Assembly (NCBI GenBank): GCA_045535305.1 | Contig: JAZSLJ010000007.1 | Location: 5,440-69,439, forward strand | Source: Acutalibacteraceae bacterium | GTDB lineage: Bacteria > Bacillota > Clostridia > Oscillospirales > Acutalibacteraceae | Direction of reading: 5' to 3' | Length of the DNA: 64,000 nucleotides | Part shown: piece after piece, positions 10,689 through 48,991 of the stretch | Position numbering within the stretch: position 1 is the first letter of the stretch | Layout of the letters: each line of letters opens with the position of its first letter | Position numbers and translations under genes: made by a program | The notes under the pieces: model-generated | What the model saw: the letters and a program-made list of their open reading frames with translations, nothing else | Database searches by the model: none | What the model was told of the DNA's origin: nothing

Positions 10689-10720
10689 AAAAAAAAACTT
10701 GCACAAAAAATCTGTGCAAG
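10689..10720 (-). terminator. terminator of the YebC-family gene
   Basis: CTTGCACA-AAAAATC-TGTGCAAG stem, followed by a T-run on the minus strand. Confidence 0.7.
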
Positions 10721-10738
10721 TAAATTATTAAAGACATA

Positions 10739-11482
10739 TCAACCTTCGTAATCGTCCTCATTTTCCCAGTTGTGCCATACGCTCTGAACGTCGTCATTAT
10801 CCTCAAACATTTCAAGCATTTTGCCCATAGCCTTGATATCGTCGGGATTGTCAAGTCTTGTATATGTTGAGGGGATGTATTCTGCTTCTGCAGAAATTGC
10901 AACGTAGCCTGCAGCTGCAAGAGCATCGTTGACAGCACCTACGTCGTTAGGCTCTGTTCTTACTTGGAAAACCTCTTCTTCATCTGTAATAAGGTCTGTT
11001 GCGCCTGCTTCAAGTGCAGTTTCAAGAAGTGCATCTTCGTCAACGCCGTCTTTTTCGATAACGATATTACCCATACGTTCAAACATGAACATAACAGAGC
11101 CTGCCTGACCCATGTTTCCGCCGTATTTATCAAAATAATGACGCACATCACCTGCTGTTCTGTTTCTGTTATCGGTAAGAGTTTCAACGATAACTGCTAT
11201 ACCGCAAGGACCGTAGCCCTCATATATACATTCTTCGTAGTTTGTTGCATCGCCGTCGCCTGATGCTTTTTTGATAATTCTTTCTATATTATCATTGGGT
11301 ACGTTAGCAGCTTTTGCTTTTGAAATAATATCCTTAAGCTTTGAGTTAGCTGCGGGATCGGGGCCGCCCTCACGTACAGCAACAGCAATCTCCCTGCCTA
11401 TTTTGGTAAAAACCTTAGCTCTTTGATTATCGGTTTTTTCCTTTTTTCTTTTTATTGTGCTCCATTTGGAGTGTCCTGACAT
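10739..11482 (-). CDS. YebC/PmpR-family transcriptional regulator
   Basis: MSGHSKWSTIKRKKEKTDNQRAKVFTKIGREI is the canonical YebC N-terminus. Confidence 0.95.
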   Translation of the reverse strand: MSGHSKWSTIKRKKEKTDNQRAKVFTKIGREIAVAVREGGPDPAANSKLKDIISKAKAANVPNDNIERIIKKASGDGDATNYEECIYEGYGPCGIAVIVETLTDNRNRTAGDVRHYFDKYGGNMGQAGSVMFMFERMGNIVIEKDGVDEDALLETALEAGATDLITDEEEVFQVRTEPNDVGAVNDALAAAGYVAISAEAEYIPSTYTRLDNPDDIKAMGKMLEMFEDNDDVQSVWHNWENEDDYEG

Positions 11483-28502: not shown

Positions 28503-30326
28503 TTGAATACTGCGCAGAATGTCAGAAATATTGCAATTATCGCTCACGTTGACCACGGTAAAACAACTCTTGTTGACCAGATGCTTCATCAGAGCGGCAC
28601 ATTCAGAGCAAACGAACAGGTTGCTGAAAGAGTTATGGACTCCAACGACCTTGAAAAAGAAAGAGGAATCACAATCCTTTCAAAGAACACATCAGTTCAC
28701 TACAACGGTGTTAAAATAAACATTATAGACACTCCCGGCCACGCTGATTTCGGCGGCGAGGTTGAGCGTATTATGACAATGGTTGACGGCGTTCTTCTGC
28801 TTGTTGACGCTTTTGAGGGCTGTATGCCCCAGACACGCTTCGTGCTTTCAAAGGCTCTTGCACTCAAGAAAAAGCCTCTTGTTGTTATCAATAAGATTGA
28901 CCGTCCCGGTGCAAGACCTGCCGAGGTTGTTGACGAAGTGCTTGACCTCTTTATTGAGCTTGGCGCAGACGAGGACCAGATTGAATTTCCCGTAGTTTAC
29001 GCATCTGCAAGAGAGGGCTATTCTTCACTCAACGCTGATGACAGACAGGGTGATATGCAGCCGCTTCTTCAGGCTATTATTGACAATATCGACTCCCCCG
29101 AGGGCGACGAAGAACAACCTTTACAGCTTCTTTTCTCCAGCCTTGATTACGACGACTATGTAGGCAGAATCGGTGTGGGCAAAGTTGAACGCGGCAGAGT
29201 CAAAATGGGTCAGAACGTTGTTATCTGCAAGCAGGACGGCACTACACAGAATGTTAAGGTTTCAAGACTTTATCAGTTTGAAGGCTTAAGACGTGTTGAG
29301 GTTGCCGACGCAAAAGCAGGCGATATCGTTGCTGTTTCGGGCATTGAAGGTCTTAACATCGGTGAAACAATCTGCGATATAAACTGTGTTGAGCCTCTCC
29401 CCTTCGTTAAAATTGATGAACCCACCATCTCCATGAACTTTATGGTTAACGACAGTCCCTTTGCAGGTCAGGAAGGTAAATTTGTTACATCAAGAAACAT
29501 CCGTGCAAGACTTTTTAAAGAGGTTGAAACAAACGTAAGTATGAGAGTTGAAGAAACCGAAAATACCGACACGTTCAAGGTTTCGGGCAGAGGCGAGCTT
29601 CATCTTTCAATCCTTATTGAAACAATGAGAAGACAGGGCTATGAATTTGCAGTTTCAAGACCCAAGGTTATTCTCAAAAAAGGCGAAAACGGCGAAACTC
29701 TTGAGCCTATGGAACTGCTTATTGTTGAAGTTCCCGAAGCTTACGTGGGCGCTGTTATGGAAAAAATCGGTTCACGTAAAGGCGAGCTTGAAGATATGAG
29801 CATCCGCGACGGCGGCACAACACATCTTGAATTCAAAATCCCCGCAAGAGGACTTATCGGCTACAGAAGCGAATTCCTTACAGACACAAACGGCTACGGC
29901 GTTATGAACAACCTGTTTGCAGGCTATGAGCCTTTCAAGGGCGACATTCAGACCCGCGACAGAGGTTCAATCGTTGTTCACGAAACAGGTGAAAGCACCG
30001 CATACGGTCTTTTCAATACTCAGGACAGAGGCAGACTTTTCATCGGCCCCGGTGTACCTGTTTACGAGGGTATGATCTGCGGCGAATGTGCAAAAAATGA
30101 GGATATCGTATGCAACGTCTGCAAGAAAAAGCAGATGACAAACACACGTGCTGCAGGCTCGGACGATGCACTCCGTCTTGTTCCCCATTCCACATTAAGC
30201 CTTGAACAGAGTATGGAATTTTTGAGTGAAGACGAGCTTCTTGAAGTAACTCCCAAGAGTCTTAGACTTCGCAAAATGATTCTTTCCAAGGAATTAAGAC
30301 TTAAACAGCAGTACAGAAGAAAGTAA
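28503..30326 (+). CDS. typA: translational GTPase TypA/BipA
   Basis: [30 protein letters not shown] and NKID motifs; 607 aa. The TTG start has a GAAGGTG SD. Confidence 0.95.
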
Positions 30327-30460
30327 ACAATAATTTAATGTACAATGTACAATTTACAATGTACATTATTAATAATATATAAATCGGGTTAAAGGGCGAA
30401 GCCCTTTCCTCAATTGTACATTATACATTGTACATTGTTAATTAGCTAAATTATTGTTTA
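30324..30460 (+). mobile_element. heptamer-arm TIR element, copy A (MITE/REP-like)
   Basis: 13-bp TIRs TAAACAATAATTT/AAATTATTGTTTA. AATGTAC x4 (30337-30364) faces ATTGTAC x4 (30413-30440). The core hairpin is AAAGGGC-GAA-GCCCTTT (30391-30407). Confidence 0.7.
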
Positions 30461-30486: not shown

Positions 30487-30518
30487 GAGCATCACAGAAA
30501 AAGTGATGCTCTTTTTTT
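30487..30518 (+). terminator. typA rho-independent terminator (downstream of element A)
   Basis: GAGCATCAC-AGAAAAA-GTGATGCTC followed by T7. Confidence 0.85.
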
Positions 30519-36016: not shown

Positions 36017-39000
36017 TTACTTAAAGTATTTAACTGCTGATGTGAACATACCGATATTGAAATCGCCGTCAACGTTCTTATAAAGTCCGTTGCCGATACG
36101 CTCGGAGTGTCCCATTTTACCGAGAACTCTGCCGTCGGGTGAAGTGATACCTTCAATAGCACATACAGAGTTGTTGGGATTGAAATGAATATCCGTTGTG
36201 GGGTTGCCGTTAAGGTCAACATACTGTGTAGCAATCTGACCGTTAGCCGCAAGCTCCTTAACAAGATCGTCGGAGCAGAGGAATCTGCCTTCGCCGTGAG
36301 AAATAGGCACTGTGTAAACATCACCCACATTTGTTTCCATAAGCCAGGGGGACTTATTGGATGCAATTCTTGTGCGTACAAGTCTGGACTGATGTCTGCC
36401 GATTGTGTTGTAAGTAAGAGTGGGACAGGATGCATCAGTATCAATTATCTCACCGTAAGGAACAAGACCTAACTTGATAAGAGCCTGGAAGCCGTTACAG
36501 ATACCTGCCATAAGGCCGTCGCGGTTTTTAAGAAGCTCATGTACCTGCTCTTTGATTGCCGCATTACGGAAGAATGCTGTAATGAATTTACCTGCACCGT
36601 CGGGCTCATCCCCGCCGGAGAAACCGCCGGGGATAAAGATAATCTGAGAATCCTTAACCTTGCTTGCAAACGCATCAACAGATTCTGCAATAGCCTGTGC
36701 TGAAAGGTTCTTTATAACAAAGATTTCGGGGTCTGCACCTGCTGTCATAAGTGCCTTTGCTGTGTCAAACTCACAGTTTGTGCCGGGGAATACGGGAATA
36801 AGCACCTTGGGCTTTGCTGTTTTGATAGCGGGAGCAACTCTTGTTTCTGCATTATATGAAAATGCGGGAATTTCCTTGTTATCCTGTTTGATATTGCAGG
36901 AATAGATAGGTTCAAGCTTGTTTTCGTAAATTTCAAGGAGAGAAGCAAGCTCAATTTCGGTATTTGCATACTTGATTGTCTCTTCAAGAGTTGTGTAACC
37001 GAGAAGAGTGCCGATTTCATCCTCTGTATTGAGTTCAAGAATGAATGCACCGTAGTTATATCCGAAAATATCATCAAGTTCAACAGCATCGTTATACTCA
37101 AAGCCGATACCGTTACCGAAGCACATCTTCATAACAGCTTCTGCAACACCGCCGTAAGTGGGAGTGTAACAAGCTTCAACAATACCCTTGCTCATATAGC
37201 CGTAAACTTCGTCAAAGAGTGCTTTTTCGGATGCTGCAACGGGAAGACCGTTTTCATCACATTCGGGTTTAAGGATAACAACCTTATGACCCGCACCCTT
37301 GAATTCGGGAGAAACAACCTCATTTACATTACCTGTTGTAACAGCAAATGAAACGAGTGTGGGAGGTACGTCGATATCCTCAAAAGTACCGCTCATTGAG
37401 TCTTTACCGCCGATAGATGCGATTTCGTAATCCATCTGAGCCTTGAATGCACCGAGAAGTGCTGAAAGAGGCTGTCCCCAACGAGCAGGGCTCTTTTCGG
37501 GTTTTTCAAAATATTCCTGGAATGTAAGGTACACGTCCTCAAACTTTGCGCCTGTTGCAACAAGCTTTGCAACAGACTCAACAACAGCAAGATATGCGCC
37601 GTGATAAGGACTCTTTTCCATAATAAAGGGATTGTAACCCCATGACATATATGAACAGGTGTCTGTGTGCTGTTTTTCAACGGAAACCTTATTTACCATA
37701 GCCTGAATGGGAGTAAGCTGATTCTTACCGCCGAAAGGCATAAGAACTGTGCCTGCACCGATTGTGGAGTCAAAACGCTCGGAAAGTCCTCTCTTTGAGC
37801 AGACGTTAAGGTCGCCTGCGAGAGCTTTGTATGCACTGTCAAAATCGGTAACTGCACCTTTATCATATGACTTGAACTTTTCAGGTCTAATGTCGATATG
37901 CTTCTGTGCGCCGTTTGAGTTAAGGAACTCTCTTGAAAGGTCAACAATAACCTTTCCGTTCCATGTCATTGTAAGTCTGGGCTCTGCTTTTACCTTTGCA
38001 ACAACTGTTGCTTCAAGGTTTTCACTGTTTGCAAGCTCTACGAATCTTGCAACATCCTTTGCTTCAACAACAACAGCCATTCTTTCCTGTGATTCGCTGA
38101 TAGCAAGCTCTGTGCCGTCAAGACCTTCGTACTTTTTGGGTACTGCATTAAGGTCGATTTCAAGACCGTCTGCAAGCTCACCGATGGCAACGGATACACC
38201 GCCTGCACCGAAGTCGTTACAACGCTTGATAAGTCTTGAAGCCTCTGCATTTCTGAAAAGACGCTGAAGCTTTCTTTCCTCGGGAGCATTACCCTTCTGA
38301 ACCTCTGCACCGCAGCTTTCAAGTGATTCAAGAGTGTGTGATTTTGATGAACCTGTTGCACCGCCGCAACCGTCGCGGCCTGTTCTGCCGCCTAAAAGGA
38401 TAACGATATCACCGGGATCGGGACATTCTCTTCTTACGTTTTCAGCGGGAGCAGCAGCAATAACTGCGCCGATTTCCATACGCTTTGCAACATAACCGCT
38501 GTGGTAGATTTCGTCTACCTGACCTGTTGCAAGACCGATCTGGTTGCCGTAGGATGAATAACCTGCAGCAGCAGTAGTAACAATCTTTCTCTGGGGAAGC
38601 TTACCCTTGATTGTATCTTTAACGGGAACAAGAGGATCGCCTGCGCCTGTAACACGCATAGCTGCATATACATAAGAACGGCCTGAAAGGGGGTCGCGGA
38701 TTGCGCCGCCGATACAGGTTGCCGCACCGCCGAAGGGCTCAATTTCTGTGGGGTGGTTGTGAGTTTCGTTTTTGAAAAGAAGAAGCCAATCCTGTTCTTC
38801 ACCCTCAACGTTAACCTTAATTTTAACGGTACAAGCGTTGATTTCTTCTGATTCGTCAATTCTCGGAAGCTTGCCCTTTGCCTTTAAATATCTTGTGCCT
38901 ACTGTGGCAATATCCATAAGGTTGATGGGCTTTGTTCTGCCGATTTCGTGTCTTGCGGCAATGTATTCGTCATAAGCCTTCTGCAAAAGAGGCTCTTCAA

Positions 39001-39709
39001 ACTTAACGCTGTCGATTGTGGTTAAGAATGTTGTATGACGGCAATGATCTGACCAGTATGTATCAATCATTCTGATTTCCGTAATAGTGGGTGTCTTGTT
39101 TTCGGACTTGAAATAATCCTGACAGAATTTAATATCGTCAGCATCCATAGCAAGAGCGTAATTCTTAACAAACTGTGCAAGACCGTTTTCATCAAGGTCA
39201 TTAAAGCCTTCAAGCACAGCTACGCTGTCGGGTACTGTGTACTCTGCCTTGAGAGTATCGAAAGTATCCATTGTTGCTTCACGGCTCTCAACAGGGTTGA
39301 TAACATACTTTTTAACAGCTTCAATTTCTGATGCGGACATATCGCCCTTCATAACATAAACTCTCGCAGTTCTTACAAGAGGTCTTTCGCCCTGTGAAAT
39401 AATCTGTATACACTGAGCGGCGGAGTCTGCACGCTGGTCAAACTGACCGGGAAGATACTCAACTGCAAATACAATATCACCCTCATCAGCTTTAAGCTCG
39501 TCTGTTACGATGTCAAGCTGAGGCTCGGAGAAAACCGTTTTAACGGAGTAATCAAACAAATCCTTGTCGATATTTTCAACATCATAACGGTTAAGAAGTC
39601 TTAATTCTTTAAGAGAAGAAATACCGAGAAGTGTAATCAAATCGTTTTTAAGAGAATGAGCCTCGTGGGCAAGTTCTTCTTTTTTTTCTACAAATATTCT
39701 GTATACCAT
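36017..39709 (-). CDS. purL: phosphoribosylformylglycinamidine synthase, single-chain form
   Basis: 1230 aa with PurS-like N-terminus, FGAM synthase core (ETHNHPT..) and C-terminal glutaminase (GICNGFQ). Confidence 0.95.
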   Translation of the reverse strand: MVYRIFVEKKEELAHEAHSLKNDLITLLGISSLKELRLLNRYDVENIDKDLFDYSVKTVFSEPQLDIVTDELKADEGDIVFAVEYLPGQFDQRADSAAQCIQIISQGERPLVRTARVYVMKGDMSASEIEAVKKYVINPVESREATMDTFDTLKAEYTVPDSVAVLEGFNDLDENGLAQFVKNYALAMDADDIKFCQDYFKSENKTPTITEIRMIDTYWSDHCRHTTFLTTIDSVKFEEPLLQKAYDEYIAARHEIGRTKPINLMDIATVGTRYLKAKGKLPRIDESEEINACTVKIKVNVEGEEQDWLLLFKNETHNHPTEIEPFGGAATCIGGAIRDPLSGRSYVYAAMRVTGAGDPLVPVKDTIKGKLPQRKIVTTAAAGYSSYGNQIGLATGQVDEIYHSGYVAKRMEIGAVIAAAPAENVRRECPDPGDIVILLGGRTGRDGCGGATGSSKSHTLESLESCGAEVQKGNAPEERKLQRLFRNAEASRLIKRCNDFGAGGVSVAIGELADGLEIDLNAVPKKYEGLDGTELAISESQERMAVVVEAKDVARFVELANSENLEATVVAKVKAEPRLTMTWNGKVIVDLSREFLNSNGAQKHIDIRPEKFKSYDKGAVTDFDSAYKALAGDLNVCSKRGLSERFDSTIGAGTVLMPFGGKNQLTPIQAMVNKVSVEKQHTDTCSYMSWGYNPFIMEKSPYHGAYLAVVESVAKLVATGAKFEDVYLTFQEYFEKPEKSPARWGQPLSALLGAFKAQMDYEIASIGGKDSMSGTFEDIDVPPTLVSFAVTTGNVNEVVSPEFKGAGHKVVILKPECDENGLPVAASEKALFDEVYGYMSKGIVEACYTPTYGGVAEAVMKMCFGNGIGFEYNDAVELDDIFGYNYGAFILELNTEDEIGTLLGYTTLEETIKYANTEIELASLLEIYENKLEPIYSCNIKQDNKEIPAFSYNAETRVAPAIKTAKPKVLIPVFPGTNCEFDTAKALMTAGADPEIFVIKNLSAQAIAESVDAFASKVKDSQIIFIPGGFSGGDEPDGAGKFITAFFRNAAIKEQVHELLKNRDGLMAGICNGFQALIKLGLVPYGEIIDTDASCPTLTYNTIGRHQSRLVRTRIASNKSPWLMETNVGDVYTVPISHGEGRFLCSDDLVKELAANGQIATQYVDLNGNPTTDIHFNPNNSVCAIEGITSPDGRVLGKMGHSERIGNGLYKNVDGDFNIGMFTSAVKYFK

Positions 39710-40977
39710 TAATTTTCACCTGCTTTTAATGCTTTTGCGCCGATATCGTGGCGGTAAAATGCGTTGCCGAAATGCACCTTTTCTACTGCCTTGTATGATT
39801 TATCAATAGCTTCTTTAAGTGTTGCAGCTGTGGCTGTTACGCCCAATACTCTGCCGCCGTTTGTAAGAAGTTTGCCGTTTTCTGCCTTTGCACCTGCTAC
39901 AAAAACCTCACCGTCAATATCTGCATCAACTGTGATTTCATAGCCTTTTTCGTATTTAACGGGATAACCCTCAGATGCCATAATTACACAGCAGGCATTT
40001 TCTGACTTGAATTTAACATCAATTTCAGAAAGCTTTTCATCTGCAACAGCTTCCATAATTGTGTAAAGGTCAGTATCAAGCAAAGGAAGAACAACCTGTG
40101 TTTCGGGGTCGCCGAAACGGCAGTTATACTCAATAACCTTTGTGCCGTTGGGAGTTATCATAAGACCGAAGTAAAGACAGCCCTTGAAGGTTCTGCCTTC
40201 GGCATTCATAGCGTTCATTGTGGGAATGAAGATTTTTTCCATACATTCTGCAGCAACAGCATTTGTATAGTAGGGGTTGGGAGCAACTGTACCCATACCG
40301 CCTGTATTAAGACCTTCGTCATTATCCTTTGCGCGCTTGTGGTCCATTGATGAAACCATGGGAACAACTGTTTTTCCGTCTGTGAATGAAAGCACGGAAA
40401 CCTCAGGGCCTGTAAGGAATTCTTCAATAACGATATTGCTTCCGCTTTCACCAAAAACCTTATCTTCCATCATTTCCTTAACTGCTTTTTTAGCGTCTTC
40501 CCTTGTCTGTGCGATAATTACGCCTTTACCCAGTGCAAGACCGTCAGCCTTAATAACCGTGGGAACGGGAGCTGTATCAAGGTATTCGAGAGCCTTGTCA
40601 ATATCGGAAAATACCTCATATTCCGCTGTGGGAATACCGTATTTCTTCATAAGGTTCTTTGAAAATACCTTACTGCCCTCGATTATAGCCGCATTTTTAC
40701 TCGGACCGAAGCATTTGATGCCGATTTCGTTAAGAGCATCAACACAACCGAGTACAAGAGGGTCGTCGGGAGCAACAACAGCAAAATCAATGCTGTTATT
40801 CTTTGCAAAATCGACGATTCCCGCAATATCCGTTGCACCGATATTAACACACTGAGCATCTGCGGCAATTCCGCCGTTACCGGGGAGTGCATAAATCTTT
40901 TCGATAGATTTGTTTTCTTTTAACTTTTTTATAATGGCGTGTTCTCTGCCGCCGCCACCTACAACTAAAATCGTCAT
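39709..40977 (-). CDS. purD: phosphoribosylamine-glycine ligase
   Basis: MTILVVGGGGREHA.. with an ATP-grasp domain. Its stop overlaps the purL start (TAATG). Confidence 0.95.
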   Translation of the reverse strand: MTILVVGGGGREHAIIKKLKENKSIEKIYALPGNGGIAADAQCVNIGATDIAGIVDFAKNNSIDFAVVAPDDPLVLGCVDALNEIGIKCFGPSKNAAIIEGSKVFSKNLMKKYGIPTAEYEVFSDIDKALEYLDTAPVPTVIKADGLALGKGVIIAQTREDAKKAVKEMMEDKVFGESGSNIVIEEFLTGPEVSVLSFTDGKTVVPMVSSMDHKRAKDNDEGLNTGGMGTVAPNPYYTNAVAAECMEKIFIPTMNAMNAEGRTFKGCLYFGLMITPNGTKVIEYNCRFGDPETQVVLPLLDTDLYTIMEAVADEKLSEIDVKFKSENACCVIMASEGYPVKYEKGYEITVDADIDGEVFVAGAKAENGKLLTNGGRVLGVTATAATLKEAIDKSYKAVEKVHFGNAFYRHDIGAKALKAGEN

Positions 40978-41001
40978 ATATTTGTACCTTTCAATAACAA
41001 A

Positions 41002-42186
41002 TTAATGGTGGAAAAGTCTCATACCTGTAAAGCACATAGCGATGCCGTACTTGTTACAGGTTTCGATAACCTGATCATCTCTGATTGAACCGCCGGGCTC
41101 TGCGATATAAGAAACGCCGCTTCTTCTTGCTCTCTCGATGTTATCGCCGAAGGGGAAGAATGCATCTGAACCCAGTGCAACACCTGTGATAGAATCAAGA
41201 TAAGCTCTCTTTTCAGCCTTTGTGAACTCTGCGGGCTGCTCAGTAAAGTAAAGCTGCCAGTTACCGTCTGCAAGTACGTCCTCGCTGTCATCAGAAATGT
41301 AAACATCAATGCAGTTATCTCTGTCGGGTCTGCCGAGTTCGGGTTTAAAGGGAAGATTAAGCACCTTTTCGTGCTGACGGAGATGCCAGTTATCTGCCTT
41401 CTGACCTGCAAGTCTTGTACAATGGATTCTTGACTGCTGACCTGCACCTACGCCGATAGCCTGTCCCTGATATGCGTAGCAAACAGAGTTTGACTGTGTA
41501 TATTTAAGAGTGATAAGAGAAATAATAAGGTCTCTCTTAGCTTCTTCGGGAATTTCTGTGTTCTCTGTAACAACCTTTGTAAGAAGCTCGCTGTCGATTT
41601 TAAAATTATTTCTGCCCTGTTCAAAGGTAATGCCGTAAACCTGCTTTACCTCCTGCTCCATAGGAACATAATCAGCATCAATTTTAACTATATTGTAGTT
41701 GCCCTTTCTCTTCTGTTTAAGAATTTCAAGTGCTTCAGGCTCATAACCGGGAGCGATAACACCGTCGGAAACCTCTCTCTTTATAAGAAGAGCTGTTGTA
41801 ACATCACATACGTCTGAAAGCGCAATCCAGTCGCCGAATGATGACATTCTGTCTGTTCCTCTTGCTCTTGCGTAAGCACATGCAAGGGGTGATTCGTCAA
41901 GACCTTCAATATCATCAACAAAGCAAGCCTTTTTGAGTGCATCGGAAAGAGGTGTGCCGACAGCAGCGGATGTGGGGCTTACGTGCTTGAAGGATGTTGC
42001 ACAAGGCATACCTGTTGCAGCCATAAGCTCCTTTACAAGCTGCCATGAGTTGAATGCATCAAGGAAATTGATATAACCGGGACGTCCGCAGAGAATTTCT
42101 ATGGGAAGCTCGCTGCCGTCGCTCATATATATTTTTGCAGGCTTCTGGTTGGGGTTACAGCCATATTTAAGTTCAAATTCTTTCAC
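41002..42186 (-). CDS. purH: AICAR formyltransferase (PurH transformylase domain only)
   Basis: 394 aa matching the AICARFT half of PurH (LKYGCNPNQ..; ..FTGMRLFHH C-terminus). It lacks the MGS-like cyclohydrolase domain. Confidence 0.85.
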   Translation of the reverse strand: MKEFELKYGCNPNQKPAKIYMSDGSELPIEILCGRPGYINFLDAFNSWQLVKELMAATGMPCATSFKHVSPTSAAVGTPLSDALKKACFVDDIEGLDESPLACAYARARGTDRMSSFGDWIALSDVCDVTTALLIKREVSDGVIAPGYEPEALEILKQKRKGNYNIVKIDADYVPMEQEVKQVYGITFEQGRNNFKIDSELLTKVVTENTEIPEEAKRDLIISLITLKYTQSNSVCYAYQGQAIGVGAGQQSRIHCTRLAGQKADNWHLRQHEKVLNLPFKPELGRPDRDNCIDVYISDDSEDVLADGNWQLYFTEQPAEFTKAEKRAYLDSITGVALGSDAFFPFGDNIERARRSGVSYIAEPGGSIRDDQVIETCNKYGIAMCFTGMRLFHH

Positions 42187-42201
42187 AATAATACCCTCCG
42201 A

Positions 42202-42918
42202 TTATTTGTTTTTATTAACGATTCTTGTTTCTGTTTCGCCGGAATCAATATCAATATATCTTACGAAAAGTGAAACCTTGTTATCTTCATTGAGATTTGT
42301 CCAGATAAGGTCTGTAAGCTCATCAATGCTTACGTCGGGCAATTCAAGAGTTTTGGGTTCACCCTCAAATGAAGGAAGAGGATTGCCGTCGCAGTTGTAA
42401 GTGTGAATAAACTTAGCTCTGCCGCAGATAGGATTGGAATATGCATATGTAAATCTCTCGCAGGATGAATCATCACCCTCTGCGCTCTTGAGAATTGACA
42501 TCGCAAAGTTCATACCGTCATTTTCGCGGCGGATAATACCGGAAATTCGGGGAGTGAAATTGGGCTTGTCGTCCTCAAACTCTCTTGTGCGAAGAGCCTG
42601 TTCAAATGTCATCTGCTTATCCATAAGCTCGTAGATTGTGTCTGTCTGGTCGCCGTTTGTAACGATTGTTTTATTGCCCAATACTCTGACGGGATAATAG
42701 ATGATAAGATGAGGATCGGTCATTTTTGACTCGTCAAATGCCTTTGTACGCATAGCCTCACCCTCAGCTACAAATACGCGGTTACGGCTGTTTTCGCTTC
42801 TGCCCATAATGAAATATGCGGTTACAGCCTTTTTGCCGTCTGCGCTTTTGCCTATAATAATACCTCTGCCGTGATAAGCAAGAGAATTAAGTTCATTAGC
42901 AATAGTAGAAACTTTCAT
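42202..42918 (-). CDS. purO: IMP cyclohydrolase, PurO (archaeal) type
   Basis: YHGRGIIIGKS..AYFIMGRSENSRNRVF signature of the PurO family. Confidence 0.8.
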   Translation of the reverse strand: MKVSTIANELNSLAYHGRGIIIGKSADGKKAVTAYFIMGRSENSRNRVFVAEGEAMRTKAFDESKMTDPHLIIYYPVRVLGNKTIVTNGDQTDTIYELMDKQMTFEQALRTREFEDDKPNFTPRISGIIRRENDGMNFAMSILKSAEGDDSSCERFTYAYSNPICGRAKFIHTYNCDGNPLPSFEGEPKTLELPDVSIDELTDLIWTNLNEDNKVSLFVRYIDIDSGETETRIVNKNK

Positions 42919-42919
42919 A

Positions 42920-43555
42920 TCAGTTCTCCTTAATATATACTTTGTTATCTTTAACTTCTAATTTGTCCTCGCAGAAAAGCTTTACAGCTTCGGGAAGAAT
43001 CTTCCACTCAACCTGCTCCATAATTCTTTTCTGGAGTGTTTCGGGGGTATCGTCCTGCATAACCTCAACTGCTTTTTGCAGAATAATGGGGCCTGCATCG
43101 CATTCGGGAGTTACGAAATGAACCGTTGCACCCGAAATCTTAACGCCTTTTTCAAGTGCGGCTTCGTGAACGTGGAGTCCGTAATAGCCTTTGCCGCAGA
43201 ATGAGGGAATCAATGCGGGATGAATATTGATAATCGCATTGGGATAAGCCTCATAAACCTGCTCGTCAATAATGGTAAGAAAGCCTGCAAGCACCACAAG
43301 GTCAATATCTGCATTTTTAAGCGTATCAACAAGTGCTTTTGAGTATGAAGCTATATCGGCATAGTCTTTTCTGCAAAGAACAACGGATTCAATACCGTTG
43401 TTTGCGGCTCTTTCAAGAGCATAAACACCGGGTTTTGACGCAACAACAAGAGTTATCTTACTGCCGCCGAACATACCGCTTTTCTGTGAATCAATAAGGC
43501 TTTGCAGATTTGTGCCGCCACCTGAAACAAGGACTGCAATTTTCTTATCAGACAA
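42920..43555 (-). CDS. purN: phosphoribosylglycinamide formyltransferase
   Basis: [29 protein letters not shown]....D.GPI. Confidence 0.9.
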
Positions 43556-44585
43556 TTACAACACCCTCTTCGGACTTGATAACCTCACCGATAACGTATG
43601 CATCCTCGCCGTTTGCCTTAAGCACTTCAATAGCCTTGTCAGCATCCTCTTTAGCAACGATAACGCTCATACCTACGCCCATATTATATGTGTTGAACAT
43701 ATCTCTTTCGGGAATGTTGCCTGTTTTTGCAATAAGGTCGAAAATGGGAAGAATTCTGATAGAAGACTTATCAATCTTTGCGCCGTAGCCTTCGGGAATT
43801 GTTCTGGGAATATTCTCATAGAAGCCGCCGCCTGTGATGTGTGATACACCCTTTACTTTAACTTCTTCAAAGAGTGCGAGCATAGGCTTAACATAAATCT
43901 TTGTGGGAGTGAGGAGTGTTTCACCTACTGACTTACCGCCAAGCTCCTCACGGGGAGTTTTTATGTCTGCATTTTCAACATCAAAAACCTTTCTTACAAG
44001 TGAAAAACCGTTTGAATGAACACCGCTTGAGGGAAGGGCAATAATAACGTCGCCCTCTGTGATTGATGATGTATCAACAATCTTGTCTTTATCAACAACA
44101 CCTACGGAGAAGCCTGCAAGGTCGTATTCGTCAACAGGATAGAAACCGGGCATTTCTGCTGTTTCACCGCCGATAAGAGATGCACCTGCCTGAACACAGC
44201 CCTCTGCAACACCTGCAACGATGTCTGCAATTCTTTCGGGAACGTTTTTGCCGCAAGCGATGTAATCAAGGAAAAGAAGGGGTTTTGCACCGCAGCAGAT
44301 AATATCGTTAACACACATTGCAACACAGTCAATACCTACTGTATCGTGCTTGTCCATAATAAATGCAAGTTTGAGCTTTGTGCCTACACCGTCTGTACCG
44401 CCAACGAGAACAGGCTTTGTTATACCTGTAAGATCAAGGCTGAACAGACCGCCGAAGCCGCCGATATCGGAAACCTCATTACCTGTCATTGTTCTTGCAA
44501 TGTGCTGTTTCATAAGCTCAACAGCTTTGTAGCCGGCAGTAATATCTACGCCTGCTTCTTTGTAACTTTCACTAAAACTTTTCAT
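43548..44585 (-). CDS. purM: phosphoribosylformylglycinamidine cyclo-ligase (AIR synthetase)
   Basis: [26 protein letters not shown].. Confidence 0.95.
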
Positions 44586-44668
44586 TATGTTTATCCTCCT
44601 GTAAGGAATTTTTTATTATTTAAAAATACGAAATGGGGCAAAGCGTACCTTGTCCCTGTTTCCGTAAA

Positions 44669-45163
44669 TTATGCATTATATTTTTCTTCGATTGCTTTAT
44701 TTTTAGCAAGCACTTTTTCACTGCCTGCTTTTCTTGCATCATTGAGCTTGTCTGCAAGCTCTTTATCCTCAATAGCGAGCATCTGAATTGCAAGCAGAGC
44801 AGCATTAGCCGCACCGTTTACTGCAACGGTTGCAACGGGAATACCTGTAGGCATCATAACGGTTGAAAGAAGTGCATCCATACCGTCAAGATATTTAGCC
44901 GCAACGGGAATACCGATAACGGGCAGAGTTGTGTTTGCCGCAATCGCACCTGCAAGATGAGCAGCCATACCTGCGGCTGCAATTATTGCGCCGAAGCCGT
45001 TTGTTCTTGCGTTTTCGGAAAATTCCTTAGCTTCAACAGGTGTTCTGTGGGCTGAGTAAACATGAACCTCAAAGGGAACGCCGTACTCCTTAAGAGTGTC
45101 AATAGCTTTTTCAACAACGGGCAAATCGCTGTCGCTGCCCATAATAATTGCAACTTTTTTCAT
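44669..45163 (-). CDS. purE: 5-(carboxyamino)imidazole ribonucleotide mutase
   Basis: [13 protein letters not shown]...SAHRTP...[12 protein letters not shown]. Confidence 0.95.
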
Positions 45164-45193: not shown

Positions 45194-45300
45194 TAAAAAA
45201 AGGCAGTCCTGTACTGTAAGGACTGCCCAGACGGTCGGCTTAAAATATTTCTGCTCCCTGCGGTCAATTCCGCTTATCCGTCAGTAACAGAAATCCACAG
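45194..45300 (-). promoter_or_regulatory. ZTP (pfl-motif) riboswitch with expression-platform terminator
   Basis: Minus-strand RNA reads ..ACUGACGG-AUAA-GCGG-AAUUGA-CCGC-AGGGAGC..(linker)..CCGACCGUCUGGGCA. CCGUC is complementary to GACGG (pseudoknot helix). CUGGGCAGUCC is shared with the terminator GGCAGUCC-UUACAGUACA-GGACUGCC plus U7 (45194-45227). Confidence 0.75.
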
Positions 45301-46591: not shown

Positions 46592-46736
46592 ATACACTCT
46601 CCTTTCGTAACAAGCATATCGTTTAAATTATACAATAGAATTAAGCATTTATCAACAGAAAAATCCGGACATTTTACAATAATTTGCCCGGATTTTATAA
46701 TTTATAATTTTAATGAATCACAAAAGTTTTATTTAA

Positions 46737-47819
46737 TTATTTTTTATTTGTATCAAGAAAACCGTTCTGCTGCATAAATGTCATCATACCCACCATTGTA
46801 ATATCGTTCGTACGACCCTTAACGGTACACATACCTGCAGGAATATCATAAGAAAGCACTTTGATATATGCAATATCGTTATTCATATTACCTTCTGCAT
46901 CCTTTGTGCAAAGAGCTTTGATGTTATCGTTTTTATCTGCAAAGAAGCAAAGTGCTGTTCCATTCTCGGAAATAAAGCTGTATACTGTATATTCAACGCC
47001 GCCGAGAGTTTCTTTACCTGAAGTTATTTCTTTATAATCTTCTTTTTTGCCGAAATTATAGTTTGCAAGCATATTTGATGTATCAAAGCCGTCGGCAATT
47101 TCGGAATCAGCATCAAACTTGTAATAATATTTTGTTGTGCCGAAAAGTCCTTTTACATCGTATTTAAGGTAAATATCACCCTTGTTTATATAAACAGCCA
47201 TTTCCATACCGTCAATAGAAGCTACAAACTCAACGTCTTCACCGTTTGCAGCAATTCCGCCTGTTGCACCGTCGCCCTCAAGCTCCATATAGTAATGATT
47301 CTCAAACAAGCCGTCGATTGCCTTGGGATAAGAAACTTTATTGCCCTGAGTTGTAGTTTCGGGTGCCTGAGTTGTAGTCTCAGGAGCTTCTGTTGTAGTC
47401 TCGGGAGCTTCTGTTGTAGTCTCGGGAGCTTCTGTTGTAGTCTCAGGAGCTTCTGTTGTAGTCTCGGGTGCTTCTGTTGTGGTCTCGGGAGCTTCTGTTG
47501 TAGTTTCTTCCTCAATCACGATATTGGGGTCGTCAAACTGTTCAAGAGCCGCAGAAACTCTCAATATAGTACGTGCATCACCTGCAAGAATATCTCCGCT
47601 TTCGTCAACGTCAGCGGCAATAAGTGCATCACCCTCAAGCACTTCCAATGTTGCGGCAGCTCTTAATGCAAGACGGGCATCATCTGCCGTAATCTTACCG
47701 TCCCCGTTTACGTCGCCGCGCATTATTGTTTTTGCGCTTACATTAACCAATGTACAGCATACAAGCATTACTGCTGAAATGATTAAACATAACGCTCTTT
47801 TAGAATTCAAATGTTTCAT
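46737..47819 (-). CDS. secreted dockerin-containing protein with TTEAPET linker repeats and an unknown C-terminal domain
   Basis: Signal peptide, then duplicated dockerin Ca-loops (GDVNGDGKITADDARLALR and DVDESGDILAGDARTILR), then 8 x ETTT(E/Q)AP. Confidence 0.75.
   Translation of the reverse strand: MKHLNSKRALCLIISAVMLVCCTLVNVSAKTIMRGDVNGDGKITADDARLALRAAATLEVLEGDALIAADVDESGDILAGDARTILRVSAALEQFDDPNIVIEEETTTEAPETTTEAPETTTEAPETTTEAPETTTEAPETTTEAPETTTQAPETTTQGNKVSYPKAIDGLFENHYYMELEGDGATGGIAANGEDVEFVASIDGMEMAVYINKGDIYLKYDVKGLFGTTKYYYKFDADSEIADGFDTSNMLANYNFGKKEDYKEITSGKETLGGVEYTVYSFISENGTALCFFADKNDNIKALCTKDAEGNMNNDIAYIKVLSYDIPAGMCTVKGRTNDITMVGMMTFMQQNGFLDTNKK
47345..47512. repeat. 8 tandem 21-bp repeats (coding, ETTTEAP linker)
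   Basis: CTTCTGTTGTAGTCTCGGGAG-like unit repeated head to tail with few substitutions. It also generates spurious ORFs in other frames. Confidence 0.9.
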
Positions 47820-47922
47820 AAAAAAATACCTCACTTTTAATATGTATATCAATAATTATACATAAATCCAACCGATATTGCAACATATATTAACATTTTA
47901 TTTCAGGAATATTAAGGATTTT

Positions 47923-47951
47923 ATTGAAAATTCTGCAATTTGATAATATAA
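47923..47951 (+). promoter_or_regulatory. promoter of the sugar-phosphate isomerase gene
   Basis: TTGAAA-17 nt-TATAAT. Confidence 0.55.
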
Positions 47952-47971
47952 TAATTCCGGAGGTGAAAATT

Positions 47972-48805
47972 ATGGACAAAAGAATGTGCATAAATCTGAT
48001 TGAATCAACAATTCCGTTTATTGAACAGCTCCCTATTATAAAAAATGCAGGATTTGACGGCATTTTTTTGGATTGGGAAAGAAATATTGACTTACAGCCG
48101 ATTATAAACAAAGCAAGAGAGCTTGGGCTGTATGTGCAGTCGCTCCACGCACCTTTTTACGGAATGGACGATATATTTCACGATGATAAGGGCAGTCTTG
48201 CAGACAAAATGATAAACGACCTTATGGGGTCAATAGATTCCTGTGCCGAATTCGGTATCGAGCTGGTTATTTTTCATGCTGTTATCGGCATGGACAATCA
48301 CTCCCCCAACGAAAAAGGACTTGAAAGAATTAAAAAAGTTATTGAACACGCCGCTGAAAAGAATGTTCGTATTGCATTTGAAAACACAGAGGGTGAAGAA
48401 TATCTCAAAGCAATTCTTGACCGCTACGGCGACAGAGAACATATAGGTTTTTGCTATGATTCGGGACACGCAATGTGTTACAACTCCGGAAGTGATATAT
48501 TAGGCAAATTCGGCAAGTATCTTTTTTCAACGCATCTCAACGACAATATGGGACAGACCGAAGACGAAATAACATTCCACGATGATAACCATATGCTCCC
48601 CTTTGACGGAATTGGAGATTGGGAGAAAATTGCAAAACAGCTTAAAGAAAATAATTTCCAAGGTCCGTTTACATTTGAGCTTGTCAAAGGCAACCGCCCC
48701 AACAGAAACACAAACGACAGATATGTTGAAATGACCTTTGAAGAATATATCAAAGAGGCATACGAGAGAGCCGATAAGTTCAGGGAGATTTATGATAAAC
48801 AATAA
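47972..48805 (+). CDS. sugar phosphate isomerase/epimerase (xylose-isomerase-like TIM barrel)
   Basis: The general pattern (..FHA...AFEN.EGE...D.GH..) is typical of the AP-endonuclease-2/xylose-isomerase-like fold. The ATG at 47972 follows a GGAGGTG SD. Confidence 0.7.
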   Translation: MDKRMCINLIESTIPFIEQLPIIKNAGFDGIFLDWERNIDLQPIINKARELGLYVQSLHAPFYGMDDIFHDDKGSLADKMINDLMGSIDSCAEFGIELVIFHAVIGMDNHSPNEKGLERIKKVIEHAAEKNVRIAFENTEGEEYLKAILDRYGDREHIGFCYDSGHAMCYNSGSDILGKFGKYLFSTHLNDNMGQTEDEITFHDDNHMLPFDGIGDWEKIAKQLKENNFQGPFTFELVKGNRPNRNTNDRYVEMTFEEYIKEAYERADKFREIYDKQ

Positions 48806-48950
48806 TTCATCGGCTGATGCCGATAAAAATTAGTAATTAGTAATTAGCAATGAGTAATGGTGGAAAGGGCGTTGCCCTTTAACCCAATTTATATAATTTA
48901 AGCCCGTAGTGCTTCCTTAATTGCTCATTGCTCCCTGCTCATTGCTCATT
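48796..48950 (-). mobile_element. heptamer-arm TIR element, copy B (variant arms)
   Basis: TIR TAAACAATAATT (48796-48807). (T/G)AG(T/C)AAT x4 (48831-48858) faces ATTGCTC x4 (48920-48947). Core GGAAAGGGCGTTGCCCTTTAACCCAATTT (48862-48890) matches copies A and C. Confidence 0.6.
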
Positions 48951-48951
48951 A

Positions 48952-48991
48952 AACAATAACCGCACCGAGTAAATCGGTGCGGATTATTGTT
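48952..48991. terminator. long palindromic bidirectional terminator (CCGCACCGA hairpin, variant copy)
   Basis: AACAATAA-CCGCACCGA-GTAAA-TCGGTGCGG-ATTATTGT. It lies between the convergent isomerase and eutH genes. Confidence 0.7.

Follow-up and report, generated by a model that had tools for sequence, protein, structure and literature searches.

The palindromic element behind typA belongs to an abundant, apparently undescribed repeat family of uncultured gut Clostridia

Introduction

In the window (the whole 64-kb stretch of DNA analysed here), the stop codon of typA is followed by a palindromic element bounded by terminal inverted repeats, and the question raised by this locus is what kind of sequence occupies the end of a housekeeping gene in this way. 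A sequence-only reading had taken the element, here called copy A, for one of three copies of an abundant non-autonomous repeat of the MITE/REP kind or, alternatively, of a modular structured 3'-UTR RNA. We asked how far this holds within the window and in related genomes, how the elements are built and folded, how they relate to genes, and which explanation accounts best for them.

Results

Copy A retains the end of typA

The first three nucleotides of the terminal repeat are the TAA of the 607-aa typA ORF, as had been noticed from the sequence, and the native TypA C-terminus and stop position are retained in spite of the element (Table 1). The terminal inverted repeats, previously given as 13 bp, extend over 14 nt at 100% complementarity. 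Inside them, the arms of four tandem heptamers lie where they had been placed, but the units are imperfect: left unit 3 is AATTTAC, right unit 2 is ATTATAC and the last right unit is ATTGTTA. The centre, ATCGGGTT followed by the hairpin AAAGGGC-GAA-GCCCTTT, is also present as described. Copy A folds at -43.9 and -47.4 kcal/mol on its two strands (z = -7.7 and -8.6), and none of 200 shuffles folded as well as the native sequence. A canonical terminator hairpin with its T run is found beyond the element, in agreement with the sequence-only reading, and from this position upstream of the terminator copy A would be co-transcribed with typA. An exact protein look-up of the window TypA returned no record.

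Two further copies and two empty sites in the window

A covariance-model search of the window returned exactly three copies, the number proposed from the sequence: copy B (48854-48924, 84.3 bits, E = 1e-20), copy C (55446-55514, 54.9 bits, E = 2e-12) and copy A (30349-30417 on the minus strand, 51.1 bits, E = 2e-11). The next match at a new site had E > 1. With 0.02 occurrences expected in the window, the core pattern was found three times, and the end motif is confined to the three elements; a TIR-like match at 25575 was dismissed, being located behind a spurious ORF.

Copy C proved to be what it had been called, an inverted copy of the same length, and is ~90% identical to copy A. Its neighbours are, on one side, the stop codon of a gene for a CDP-glycerol glycerophosphotransferase-family protein (gene X) and, on the other, the pgk promoter region, and it marks a synteny breakpoint, where a 9-kb block (46598-55402) ends. 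The element alters the C-terminus of gene X from ..NK* to ..NKQ*. Copy B had been described as a variant ending at 48950; it is present but extends to about 48993 with a GC-clamped hairpin. In the type-1 copies A and C, which are without a GC clamp and U run, the only terminator-like signal is a weak match at the core of C. Housekeeping genes (typA, pgk, an eutH-like gene and a purine operon) neighbour the window elements.

At two places the window is empty where a related locus (L034, from the MAG RGIG4183) carries an element. Behind the YebC-family gene, the L034 orthologue ends in TAAACAATAATTC followed by an element, and the window retains only AATAATTTAC.

Table 1. Elements, their parts and the adjoining features in the window
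Feature	Position	Strand	Description
typA	28503-30326	+	translational GTPase, 607 aa; TAA stop at 30324-30326
Copy A	30324-30460	- (strand of the conserved core GGAAAGGGCTTCGCCCTTTAACCC)	type 1, 137 bp
Copy A outer terminal repeat	30324-30337		TAAACAATAATTTA; first TAA is the typA stop codon
Copy A heptamer arm	30337-30365		AATGTAC AATGTAC AATTTAC AATGTAC; TRF period 7, 4.1 copies
Copy A core hairpin	30386-30409	-	GG-AAAGGGC-TTC-GCCCTTT-AA-CC-C
Copy A facing heptamer arm	30413-30440		ATTGTAC ATTATAC ATTGTAC ATTGTTA; TRF period 7, 3.7 copies (30413-30438)
Copy A second terminal repeat	30447-30460		TAAATTATTGTTTA
typA intrinsic terminator	30487-30518	+	canonical, outside the element; hairpin 30487-30511 and T run
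AP_endonuc_2-family gene	47924-48805	+	last codons and stop AAA CAA TAA from the copy B left end
Copy B	48796-48993	+	type 2, ~198 bp; occupies the entire gap between two convergent genes
Copy B end hairpin	48796-48827		
Copy B arm	48828-48858		AATTAGT, 4.4 units
Copy B core	48862-48885		
Copy B second small hairpin	48900-48914		AAGCCCGTAGTGCTT
Copy B arm	48920-48950		ATTGCTC, 4.4 units
Copy B GC-clamped end hairpin	48950-48993		terminator score on both strands
EutH-family gene	48990-50312	-	convergent; stop codon within the degenerate right end of copy B
Copy C	55403-55539	+	type 1, 137 bp; core 55454-55477
Gene X	55530-57713	-	CDP-glycerol glycerophosphotransferase family; last two codons and stop AAA CAA TAA are the copy C end
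Empty site	7575-7627		orthologous intergenic region of L034 (about 5250-5460) carries a type-2 element
Empty site	10700-10741	-	behind the YebC-family gene 10739-11482

The family is large and its members are modular

Outside the window, the covariance model gave 93 matches across 579 kb of related loci taken from MAGs of Acutalibacteraceae and of related Clostridia. Thus, the count of three stands for the window but not for the family, which has at least 93 copies in related loci. A scan of genome collections returned at least 69 loci, with at least 30 copies in the MAG RGIG4183 alone, and extrapolation from 3 copies in 64 kb suggests that a genome probably holds a hundred or more. The related sequences are all MAG or metagenome contigs, which several laboratories assembled independently from different types of sample. 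Several contigs terminate within an element, and some of the chimeric copies L040, L024 and L067 may be assembly artefacts.

The ends define the family: AAACAATAATTT, preceded by an outer T and followed by A, and AAATTATTGTTT, preceded by T and followed by an outer A. These AT-rich terminal inverted repeats of 13-18 bp are conserved at both ends of the 33 full copies. Immediately outside the left end, 28 of these 33 have T, and 29 have A immediately outside the right end; no full copy has a direct repeat longer than this flanking T/A. Between the ends, heptamer arms, core hairpin and optional extra hairpins are exchangeable modules, so the modularity claimed for copy A is real and more extreme than described. 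The arms are tandem heptamers of the form NNNAATK, in at least six sequence types, each with a complementary facing arm. The core hairpin of the family is GG-AAAGGGC-N3-GCCCTTT-AA-CC, to which many copies add GC-clamped hairpins at the ends or a further small hairpin (AAG..CTT-CC). Elements measure 113-275 bp, within the limit of about 500 bp usual for MITEs, and contain no ORF. The same ends also bound variant cores, other interiors and minimal end-to-end hairpins of 33-38 bp. GTAG-plus-hairpin (REP-like) modules were seen only in elements of other, related genomes; the window copies are without GTAG.

Compensatory changes preserve the fold

In alignment A1, 89.7% of the cells are paired, against 31-58% when the partners are slid, and its covariation score of 0.203, compared with 0.107 in shuffles, was reached by none of 500 shuffles. 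In alignment A2, both partners have changed in 17 of the 22 pairs. The core stem is conserved in sequence and its loop is free, and the variants of the stem are themselves compensatory (AAAGGGC/GCCCTTT to AAAAGGC/GCCTTTT or AAAGGGT/ACCCTTT). Arm type covaries with the facing arm in the table of units; an ungapped arm-complementarity score (0.68 for the own arm, 0.60 for a foreign type) was too blunt a measure of this. These data support the fold by covariation, with compensatory changes that preserve helix pairing. In 29 of the 33 full copies, the strand of the core has the slightly more stable fold. The number of heptamers differs among copies, which is consistent with replication slippage.

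Ends coincide with stop codons

Among 122 distinct ends, 49 fall exactly on the stop codon of an ORF that is 100 codons or longer, in frames 32:17:0. The background of such coincidence is 2.9% for all TAAA tetranucleotides and 0.2% for random positions; the anchoring on stops is thus beyond simple chance or a target preference for TAAA. The end motif is not a general signal of gene ends, since match scores at 381 gene ends are bimodal, with a background of 8-9/14 and a separate group at 13-14. The copies lie between convergent (14), tandem (34) and divergent (6) gene pairs, and relative to neighbouring genes 14 are in sense and 20 in antisense orientation. The presence of both orientations and of copies in divergent promoter regions argues against a strand-specific 3'-UTR RNA.

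Several specific origins were considered and rejected. When one end is on a stop codon, the base after the TA of the far end is T or C; duplication of the stop codon's own TA, as a general rule, predicts A or G there. IS200/IS605-type ends were discarded, as the left flank has no conserved tetra- or pentanucleotide. A small RNA with its own promoter was likewise dropped: the candidate site (TTAACA-17-TACAAT, in the type-1 left arm and directed toward the core) is at chance level in AT-rich DNA, and no comparable site was seen by eye in other arm types.

The sequence-only reading had remarked on the lack of a transposase nearby, and we found no transposase or recombinase among 30 window ORFs or among 10 element-adjacent ORFs in related loci. 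The window also has no RAYT (Y1 transposase) and no integrase, no invertase was seen, and no autonomous IS with the same ends was found in the window or in 580 kb of loci. Among related loci, no sequence of at least 400 bp is repeated within one genome.

Elements turn over while their ends persist

The typA site is filled in the window and empty in six related loci (L072-L076 and L079); in four others (L070, L071, L077 and L078) it holds a lone array of AATGCAT heptamers with a variable number of units. Scans of JGI metagenomes for same-species empty typA sites, with the downstream flank or a degenerate typA 3' end, found nothing. At the gene X site, a type-1 element is present in the window and in L037, in opposite orientations. 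The other orthologues there have a bare end hairpin (L083), other arms and centre (L084), remnants (L080, L082) or nothing (L081). Different interiors at one site were also found for L025/L060 (twice), L003/L063 and L008/L047. Two orthologous same-type pairs are in opposite orientation; the pair L041/L064, which is inverted, is 0.854 identical. Subfamilies are genome-specific, and type-1 identity is 0.893 within a genome and 0.836 between genomes.

The ends stay at the same gene end across orthologues of 65% protein identity, and several apparently empty sites retain end-like pieces such as TGATAATTTA or the piece noted above behind the YebC-family gene. Such persistent ends and end-like remnants agree better with retention of a site that is perhaps useful than with selfish insertion at random. 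In the filled/empty pairs the flanks are 70-93% identical, too distant for an exact junction, and a target-site duplication was not demonstrated. The sequence-only reading would have been abandoned for lack of further copies and of empty-site polymorphism; many copies and both filled and empty orthologous sites were found instead.

Searches of databases and literature

Rfam 15 at gathering thresholds gave no match on elements in the window or in 12 loci, in line with the earlier view that the element lies outside known Rfam motifs. In E-value mode, the best sub-threshold hits of copies A and B (0.08-0.7) were to unrelated miRNA/sRNA models, which is chance level. There was no match in a BLAST of copy A against plasmids and phages, nor for the core pattern in IMG/VR viral contigs. 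A full-text literature search with element sequence strings and for the topic of MITEs, Clostridia and stop codons returned nothing relevant, and a 2024 review of prokaryotic MITEs mentions neither Clostridia nor stop codons. Copy A is thus a member of an abundant and apparently undescribed family, whose small palindromic repeats are found in uncultured gut Clostridia.

Discussion

We consider it probable that these elements form a non-autonomous, mosaic family of palindromic intergenic repeats, similar to MITEs, BIMEs or SPRITEs, in a clade of uncultured gut Clostridia; the suggestion of an abundant non-autonomous element is supported by the loci, the model matches and the filled and empty sites. 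An enzyme encoded elsewhere would recognise the conserved ends and spread or replace elements at the DNA level, and the near-invariant outer T and A would fit a TA target or a longer repeat. Each end would provide TAA in two frames, such that a gene with an element inserted at its very 3' end still encodes its full protein, and insertions at 3' ends would survive for this reason. The arms would evolve through slippage and hairpin-templated correction. Read-through from the upstream gene, as in the case of typA, would produce a hairpin of -44 to -47 kcal/mol, and the versions with a GC clamp beside the U-rich end (copy B) resemble intrinsic terminators that act in both directions. The elements may benefit the host, but the data can be explained without this.

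There is virtually no chance that the elements are accidental palindromes or assembly artefacts. An AT-rich region does yield many small inverted repeats and the relatives come from MAGs, but the z scores of the fold, the excess of the core pattern, the scan of genome collections, the model matches in the window and in independently assembled loci, and the conservation of copies at orthologous sites refute this reading. A selected cis-acting RNA or terminator module, in which a post-stop hairpin stabilises the mRNA 3' end, terminates bidirectionally or insulates cistrons and is kept as useful, strikes us as rather improbable. In its favour, the elements lie precisely between a stop codon and whatever signal comes next, be it an RBS (L037), a promoter (L010) or a convergent stop (copy B, L044, L060, L032); the copy B end hairpins score as intrinsic terminators on both strands; and the bias of placement toward 3' ends seen in the excess of convergent over divergent locations, the long occupation of the gene X end and the very stable, covarying folds point the same way. 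Against this, typA already has a fully adequate terminator after copy A and, in close relatives, manages without the element; the type-1 elements are not built as a GC clamp leading into a U run; divergent promoter regions contain six of the copies, and both orientations are represented; and genome-specific subfamilies and chimeras resemble the dynamics of parasitic repeats.

A further possibility, one we rate as unlikely, is that the elements are not cut-and-paste MITEs but substrates of a single-strand-specific or site-specific recombinase (a REP/RAYT-type HUH enzyme, an attC-type system or an invertase), with interiors exchanged or flipped at fixed sites. The recognition sites would then be the folded end hairpins together with the core hairpin, with its bulged AA and 3' AACCC. 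Pairing of the Watson-Crick type kept by compensatory changes is unexpected for a plain DDE-type MITE and hints at a single-stranded intermediate or a structural function. The conserved core stem with its free loop and compensatory variants, interiors that differ or are inverted between fixed ends in related genomes, minimal end-to-end hairpins that occur alone, REP-like GTAG hairpins as modules in related genomes, and the slightly better folding of the core strand in most full copies all favour such an enzyme. However, neither the window nor the genes next to elements yielded a recombinase, integrase or Y1 transposase, the window copies are without GTAG, and the 14:20 ratio shows no orientation bias with respect to gene direction, a proxy for the direction of replication. 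Moreover, the inversions rest on two same-type orthologous pairs only, and two independent insertions give the same picture with a probability of 0.25. In a speculative extension to which we assign a low likelihood, the end pair TAAACAATAATTT / AAATTATTGTTTA would be a stop-anchored recombination or homing site instead of a transposase footprint, at which an enzyme that acts on the folded single strand inserts, flips and exchanges hairpin cassettes where genes end. If true, such elements would constitute a new class of mobile element in bacteria, equipped with a two-frame stop codon and, in certain versions, with a terminator active in both directions.

The mosaic repeat family that we favour shares features with several known systems. 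REPs and REPINs are recognised by an imperfect, GC-rich palindrome, 20-40 nt long and headed by a conserved 5' GTAG, and by a single-copy RAYT flanked by repeats. Like BIME/REP and REPIN sequences (Bertels & Rainey 2011, PMC3116915), the elements are extragenic, high-copy, palindromic, non-coding mosaics of recurring hairpin modules, with predicted folding as ssDNA or mRNA and a concentration at gene 3' ends. They differ in that the window copies have neither GTAG nor a GC-rich REP, GG and AACCC border the core hairpin, AT-rich TIRs of 13-18 bp are what defines the family, the arms are tandem heptamers, and there is no RAYT in the window. The pneumococcal BOX, RUP and SPRITE repeats (Croucher et al. 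2011, PMC3049150) are likewise small interspersed repeats of a Gram-positive organism, restricted to one clade, with extensive secondary structure when co-transcribed and judged parasitic from their distribution. BOX is modular, with an A-B(n)-C layout and a variable number of internal units, and SPRITE resembles a terminator, a trait shared by the GC-clamped end hairpins of our family. The internal unit in our family is 7 nt in two facing arrays instead of the 45-nt boxB, and its ends carry stop codons and fall on gene stops in 40%. Foldback (FB) transposons also have long inverted arms of short tandem repeats whose number varies between copies, but they are eukaryotic and kilobase-scale with units of 10-31 bp, and the analogy is one of architecture only. 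We know of no report of stop-codon-coincident ends for BOX, RUP or SPRITE.

Correia elements and other IS630-type MITEs that duplicate TA (PMC3184786, PMC10969869) are of comparable size (100-160 bp), have TIRs and no transposase of their own, and are intergenic and co-transcribed into long RNA hairpins; the outer T...A found here may be compatible with a TA duplication such as theirs. In contrast to them, the interior of our elements is mosaic and covarying, unrelated interiors share the same ends, and we identified no parent of the IS630 kind. Small repeats at or overlapping ORF ends and in 3' UTRs, some able to change C-termini, are also known as MIRUs in mycobacteria and QMITEs in Coxiella (PMC5896051); QMITE2 includes a REP module and is shared by different strains in conserved form. 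They differ in sequence, size and host, QMITE direct repeats are 2-11 nt, and neither heptamer arms nor a two-frame end stop codon is described for them (PMC5896051). Integron attC sites resemble the elements as imperfect palindromes of 60-140 bp right after a stop codon, with variable sequence, conserved fold and outer triplets AAC...GTT. They are single-stranded recombination sites. Whereas attC sites line up in a one-way cassette array, our elements are dispersed between housekeeping genes and occur in either orientation, with no RYYYAAC/GTTRRRY consensus and no integrase in the window.

The family has practical and biological consequences. It breaks MAG assemblies, whose contigs end inside elements, and a covariance model of the core lets annotators mask the repeats and avoid spurious sRNAs, terminators and frameshifted gene ends. 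The elements are present in widespread, uncultured animal-gut Clostridia, where they also mark synteny breakpoints and rewrite the last codons of proteins. Their covarying heptamer arms are a natural system for the concerted evolution of hairpins, and the stop-anchoring rule, if resolved, would reveal either a new targeting mechanism or a clean case of selection filtering insertions.

The repeats of the window

The layout proposed for copy A, the repeat directly behind typA, is present in full. Its ends, TAAACAATAATTTA and TAAATTATTGTTTA, are perfectly complementary across 14 nt, its arms are period-7 arrays (AATGTAC x4.1 and ATTGTAC x3.7) that face each other at 87-92% complementarity, and its centre consists of ATCGGGTT and the hairpin AAAGGGC-GAA-GCCCTTT. 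The element forms one long hairpin on either strand (-43.9 and -47.4 kcal/mol; z = -7.7 and -8.6). As the sequence-only reading had it, the element's first TAA ends the reading frame of the 607-aa TypA protein, and a canonical terminator was found 3' of the element, where that reading had placed one. Because copy A lies between the typA stop and this terminator, it is predicted to be co-transcribed with typA and to fold into the long hairpin. Copy C is inverted relative to copy A and ~90% identical to it, as described; we refer to these two as type 1. Copy B (type 2) begins where it was said to, but it is longer, its end lying near 48993 and not at 48950, and its heptamers differ (AATTAGT-type facing ATTGCTC).

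The core pattern AAAGGGC-N3-GCCCTTTAACCC occurs at 3 places in the window versus 0.02 expected. A covariance model matched the three copies at E = 1e-20 to 2e-11 and found no further site in the window, the next new-site match having E > 1. The left arm of type-1 copies contains a promoter-like TTAACA-17-TACAAT (10/12) that would begin transcription at the conserved core; matches of this kind are at chance level for such AT-rich DNA.

Positions of the repeats and of other features in the window and in related loci (L0xx)
Feature	Sequence	Position	Strand	Remark
Copy A	window	30324-30460		type 1, behind typA
Core covariance-model match, copy A	window	30349-30417	-
Canonical terminator	window	30487-30511		3' of copy A
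Copy B	window	48796 to ~48993		type 2
Core covariance-model match, copy B	window	48854-48924	+
Copy C	window	55403-55539		type 1
Core covariance-model match, copy C	window	55446-55514	+
Promoter-like match	window	30413-30441	-	copy A
Promoter-like match	window	55422-55450	+	copy C
Hypervariable tetranucleotide	window	30443-30446, 55417-55420		asymmetric bulge between left end and AATTAAC
Empty site	window	7575-7627		filled in RGIG4183
Gene X	window	55530-57713	-	CDP-glycerol glycerophosphotransferase family
Block of ~9 kb	window	46598-55402
WYL/WCX-domain protein gene	window	2412-3410	+
Patatin-like phospholipase gene	window	3713-4570
ORF run	window	~36017-45163	-
ZMP/ZTP riboswitch RF01750	window	45218-45298	-	59.1 bits, E = 5e-7
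ORF with 21-bp repeat	window	46737-47852	-
21-bp tandem repeat	window	47350-47504		GTTGTAGTCTCGGGAGCTTCT x7.4, 90% matches
23-bp repeat	window	47876-47926		TATTGCAACAATATTAAGCATTT x2.2
ORF downstream of 23-bp repeat	window	47924-48805
Core match in coding region	L012	4893-4916		chance match
T-box leader	L019	3451-3647	-	98.2 bits
Core of element copy	L019	3368-3391
One-armed array	L070, L071, L077, L078	~3324-3370		AATGCAT/AATTCAC
GCAT-type element	L060	3966-4133
REP-like module	L008	~6320-6400
REP-like module	L014	~5480
REP-like module	L010	~70
Core-less hairpin	L015	552-640		AATGTAC/ATTGTAC arms
Core-bearing element, same site	L004	6029-6187		other arms

An abundant family in gut Clostridia

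The suggestion that the element is abundant beyond its three copies was borne out. When species-representative genomes were scanned for the core's 21 specified bases, at least 69 loci matched, and the covariance model gave 93 matches in 579 kb of related loci. Among the matches listed, nearly all come from metagenome-assembled genomes (MAGs) labelled Clostridia bacterium, Acutalibacteraceae bacterium or uncultured Eubacteriales, with contig names that point to the gut of roe deer, sheep and water buffalo; one MAG, RGIG4183, carries at least about 30 copies by the core scan. Several contigs terminate within the element, as expected of a high-copy repeat. The only core match outside Clostridia among those listed lies in a GC-rich coding region of a Nitrospirota MAG, has neither arms nor ends and was discarded as a chance match. 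The TypA protein of the window shares 99% identity with its counterparts in RGIG4183 and SRP315200_co2_625, with flanking DNA only 82-93% identical, and therefore the window represents a related but different species.

No Rfam 15 family reached threshold on any variant, sub-threshold matches being noise, in agreement with the view that the element belongs to no named Rfam family. Plasmids, phages and viral contigs gave no match. The literature searched contained no paper with these sequences, and a recent review of prokaryotic MITEs names nothing from Clostridia.

Anatomy and pairing

Among copies whose core matches exactly, 33 possess both ends, AAACAATAATTT and AAATTATTGTTT. Immediately beyond the left end 28 of the 33 have T, and beyond the right end 29 have A; no longer direct repeat extends beyond T/A in the 33, and farther flanks are unrelated. 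Elements with variant cores or unrelated interiors have these ends too, and in minimal hairpins of 33-38 bp the ends are separated only by a short loop or a GC clamp. The core consensus is GG-AAAGGGC-N3-GCCCTTT-AA-CC(C) with an unconstrained loop, and core variants recovered through the ends alone are compensatory (AAAAGGC/GCCTTTT, AAAGGGT/ACCCTTT). Arms are tandem heptamers of the form NNNAATK, their unit number differing from copy to copy. By the variable bases there are at least six arm types (GTAC, GAGT/TAGC, TCGT/GCGT, TCGC, TAGG/GAGG and GCAT/GCAC), GGAG-type arms are also present, and in every type the facing arm is complementary (TAGGAAT faces ATTCCTA; TCGCAAT faces ATTGCGA). Many copies, including B and excluding A and C, carry a second hairpin beyond an AU-rich linker (AAG-stem-loop-stem-CTT-CC), whose stems vary freely: GCCC/GGGC, GCCGC/GCGGC, GTCG/CGAC, TGCC/GGCA, CACC/GGTG. 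A few chimeric copies with mismatched arms (L040, L024, L067) are either recombinants or assembly joins.

Four nucleotides after the left end, type-1 copies bear a hypervariable tetranucleotide (TCGA, CCTA, GCGA, TTGA, TCTA, GCTA) with no counterpart at the right end, perhaps the leftover loop of a bare end hairpin that received the heptamer module. Heptamer hairpins occur also without the conserved core, as in L015, where the same intergenic site in L004 holds a core-bearing element. Extra modules in some related genomes include GTAG-plus-hairpin units resembling classical REPs. These REP-like modules (GTAG and a GC-rich hairpin, e.g. GTAGGGAACGATGCCCACATCGTTCC) were seen in L008, L009, L020, L030, L032, L051, L014 and L010, paired inside elements carrying the same ends, and their occurrence suggests that a RAYT-type system is possibly present in these Acutalibacteraceae genomes. 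In L019, a T-box leader lies ~60 nt from an element copy; PMC3049150 reports pneumococcal BOX elements in composite structures with T boxes.

The structure that we tested comprises three helices: arms, core and second hairpin. In a MAFFT alignment of 27 copies, 89.7% of cells were paired versus 31-58% with the partners slid, 9 pairs changed on both sides, and the covariation score was 0.203 versus 0.107 in shuffles, a value that 0 of 500 shuffles reached. An alignment of 80 distinct copies, which was fitted to the structure and, like the smaller one, contains copies related by descent, showed compensatory changes in 17 of 22 pairs and 90.1% of cells paired. The core strand folds better by only ~4 kcal/mol, in 29 of 33 copies, and G-U pairs are few; thus, pairing is essentially Watson-Crick on both strands.

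Anchoring on stop codons

The 54 copies with both neighbours called lie between convergent (14), tandem (34) or divergent (6) genes and no credible gene contains one. Where the neighbours are in tandem, the core has the sense orientation in 14 copies and the antisense orientation in 20, indicating no strand preference. Open frames of 100 codons or more run into 52 of 122 distinct ends, and in 49 of these 52 the stop codon is one of the end's two TAAs: 32 at T-AA-ACAATAA, 17 at AAA-CAA-TAA and 0 in the third frame. Such frames end at 2.9% of all TAAA tetranucleotides and at 0.2% of random positions (binomial P = 4e-42 for the coincidence; P = 2e-9 for no third frame if frames are equal). In copy B, L044, L060 and L032 both ends contain a gene stop, and the element is the entire convergent intergenic region. 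Proteins at element sites are not truncated. The C-terminus of TypA is like that of all 120 close homologues, and the gene X product ends in ..GKQ* or ..NKQ* versus ..NK* or ..G* in element-free orthologues. The end motif as a general gene-end signal was rejected: its match scores at 381 gene ends fall into two modes, and the motif occurs in the window only in the three elements.

Turnover between related genomes

Filled and empty orthologous sites, which a mobile repeat had been proposed to leave, were found at typA, at a second intergenic site and at gene X. Behind typA, the window carries type 1 in full. In five relatives whose TypA is 95-99% identical, nothing separates the stop from the terminator or next gene, and four have a lone AATGCAT heptamer array with differing unit numbers; two loci with identical TypA protein differ in what follows the stop. 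This one-armed array follows the typA stop immediately, is similar to the left arm of the L060 element (GCAT type) and, judged by sequence, looks like a decayed half-element with slippage. The second site is empty in the window and holds a type-2 element in RGIG4183. At the gene X stop, the window and RGIG4183 both carry type 1, but relative to the gene the two copies point in opposite directions. Of the other orthologues, one (66% protein identity) carries a bare end hairpin and another (65%) a full element that differs in arms and centre; end-like remnants occur in two, and the site is empty in one.

Elsewhere, L041 and L064 carry the same type inverted, and the ends are in the same place with different interiors in L025/L060 (two sites), L003/L063 and L008/L047. 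Type-1 subfamilies are genome-specific (identity 0.893 within genomes, 0.836 between), and orthologous type-1 copies bear their own genome's variant, so that either the same sites receive insertions more than once or paralogues replace the copies already there. Several apparently empty sites retain end pieces (e.g. TGATAATTTA, AATAATTTAC), pointing to former copies that decayed or to preferred insertion into end-like sequence. Turnover occurs at the DNA level.

Copy C also marks a synteny breakpoint, since it lies at one boundary of a ~9-kb block between two genes that are adjacent in RGIG4183 (L037). The block holds an unknown 371-aa ORF, an AP_endonuc_2 gene, a eutH-like gene and gpmI-tpi-pgk genes. 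Also in the window, a 21-bp tandem repeat lies inside an ORF with no Pfam match and would be an in-frame 7-residue protein repeat; a 23-bp repeat directly upstream of another ORF could be an operator or promoter repeat. The only Rfam match in the window, a ZMP/ZTP riboswitch, precedes a minus-strand ORF run taken to be a purine-synthesis operon. A WYL/WCX-domain protein, likely a transcriptional regulator, is encoded beside a patatin-like phospholipase gene; such regulators are often tied to defence or DNA-damage loci.

Origin of the family

Chance or artefact is excluded as the source of the family, which is probably a non-autonomous, mosaic, palindromic repeat of the MITE/BIME/SPRITE kind. 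The many copies and the filled and empty sites support the MITE/REP-like reading, as does the lack of a transposase nearby that had been pointed out: no transposase, integrase or recombinase domain was found in 30 window ORFs or in 10 element-adjacent ORFs elsewhere, all ordinary metabolic or housekeeping genes, and the related loci contain no repeat of at least 400 bp within one genome. The conserved ends would be recognised by an enzyme encoded elsewhere. The T...A flanks would be compatible with a TA target of the kind used by IS630-type MITEs; the far-end flanks are at odds with a simple duplication of the stop codon's TA. A TAA in two frames of each end would explain why insertion at the extreme end of a gene is tolerated; by itself it explains neither the absence of the third frame nor why half of the elements are exactly on a stop. 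The economical account would combine a target preference (TAA-A or end-like sequence) with selection in very short 3' UTRs. The microsatellite-like arms may be held complementary by slippage and hairpin-templated correction, or by selection on pairing. In copy B, the GC-clamped end hairpins, with A-rich and U-rich ends beside them, look like a bidirectional terminator for the two convergent genes.

If the repeats were substrates of single-strand or site-specific recombination, several features would be easier to explain: the compensatory changes, the core hairpin conserved together with its bulge, the interiors that are swapped or flipped between fixed ends, and the end hairpins that stand alone. 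With no such enzyme among the ORFs scanned and no orientation bias, we consider this reading unlikely. Slightly more doubtful is a selected RNA or terminator module. Precise placement and long retention at gene X speak for it, yet orientation neutrality, copies in promoter regions, dispensability at typA and parasitic-looking subfamily dynamics argue against it.

It is unlikely that the family is a new recombination-based mobile system; small palindromic interspersed repeats are a kind already known. Compared by description with the other families considered, the mosaic repeat described here differs in that its ends bear stop codons anchored on gene stops, its foldback arms are made of covarying heptamers, and a conserved three-helix centre is set in a highly exchangeable mosaic.
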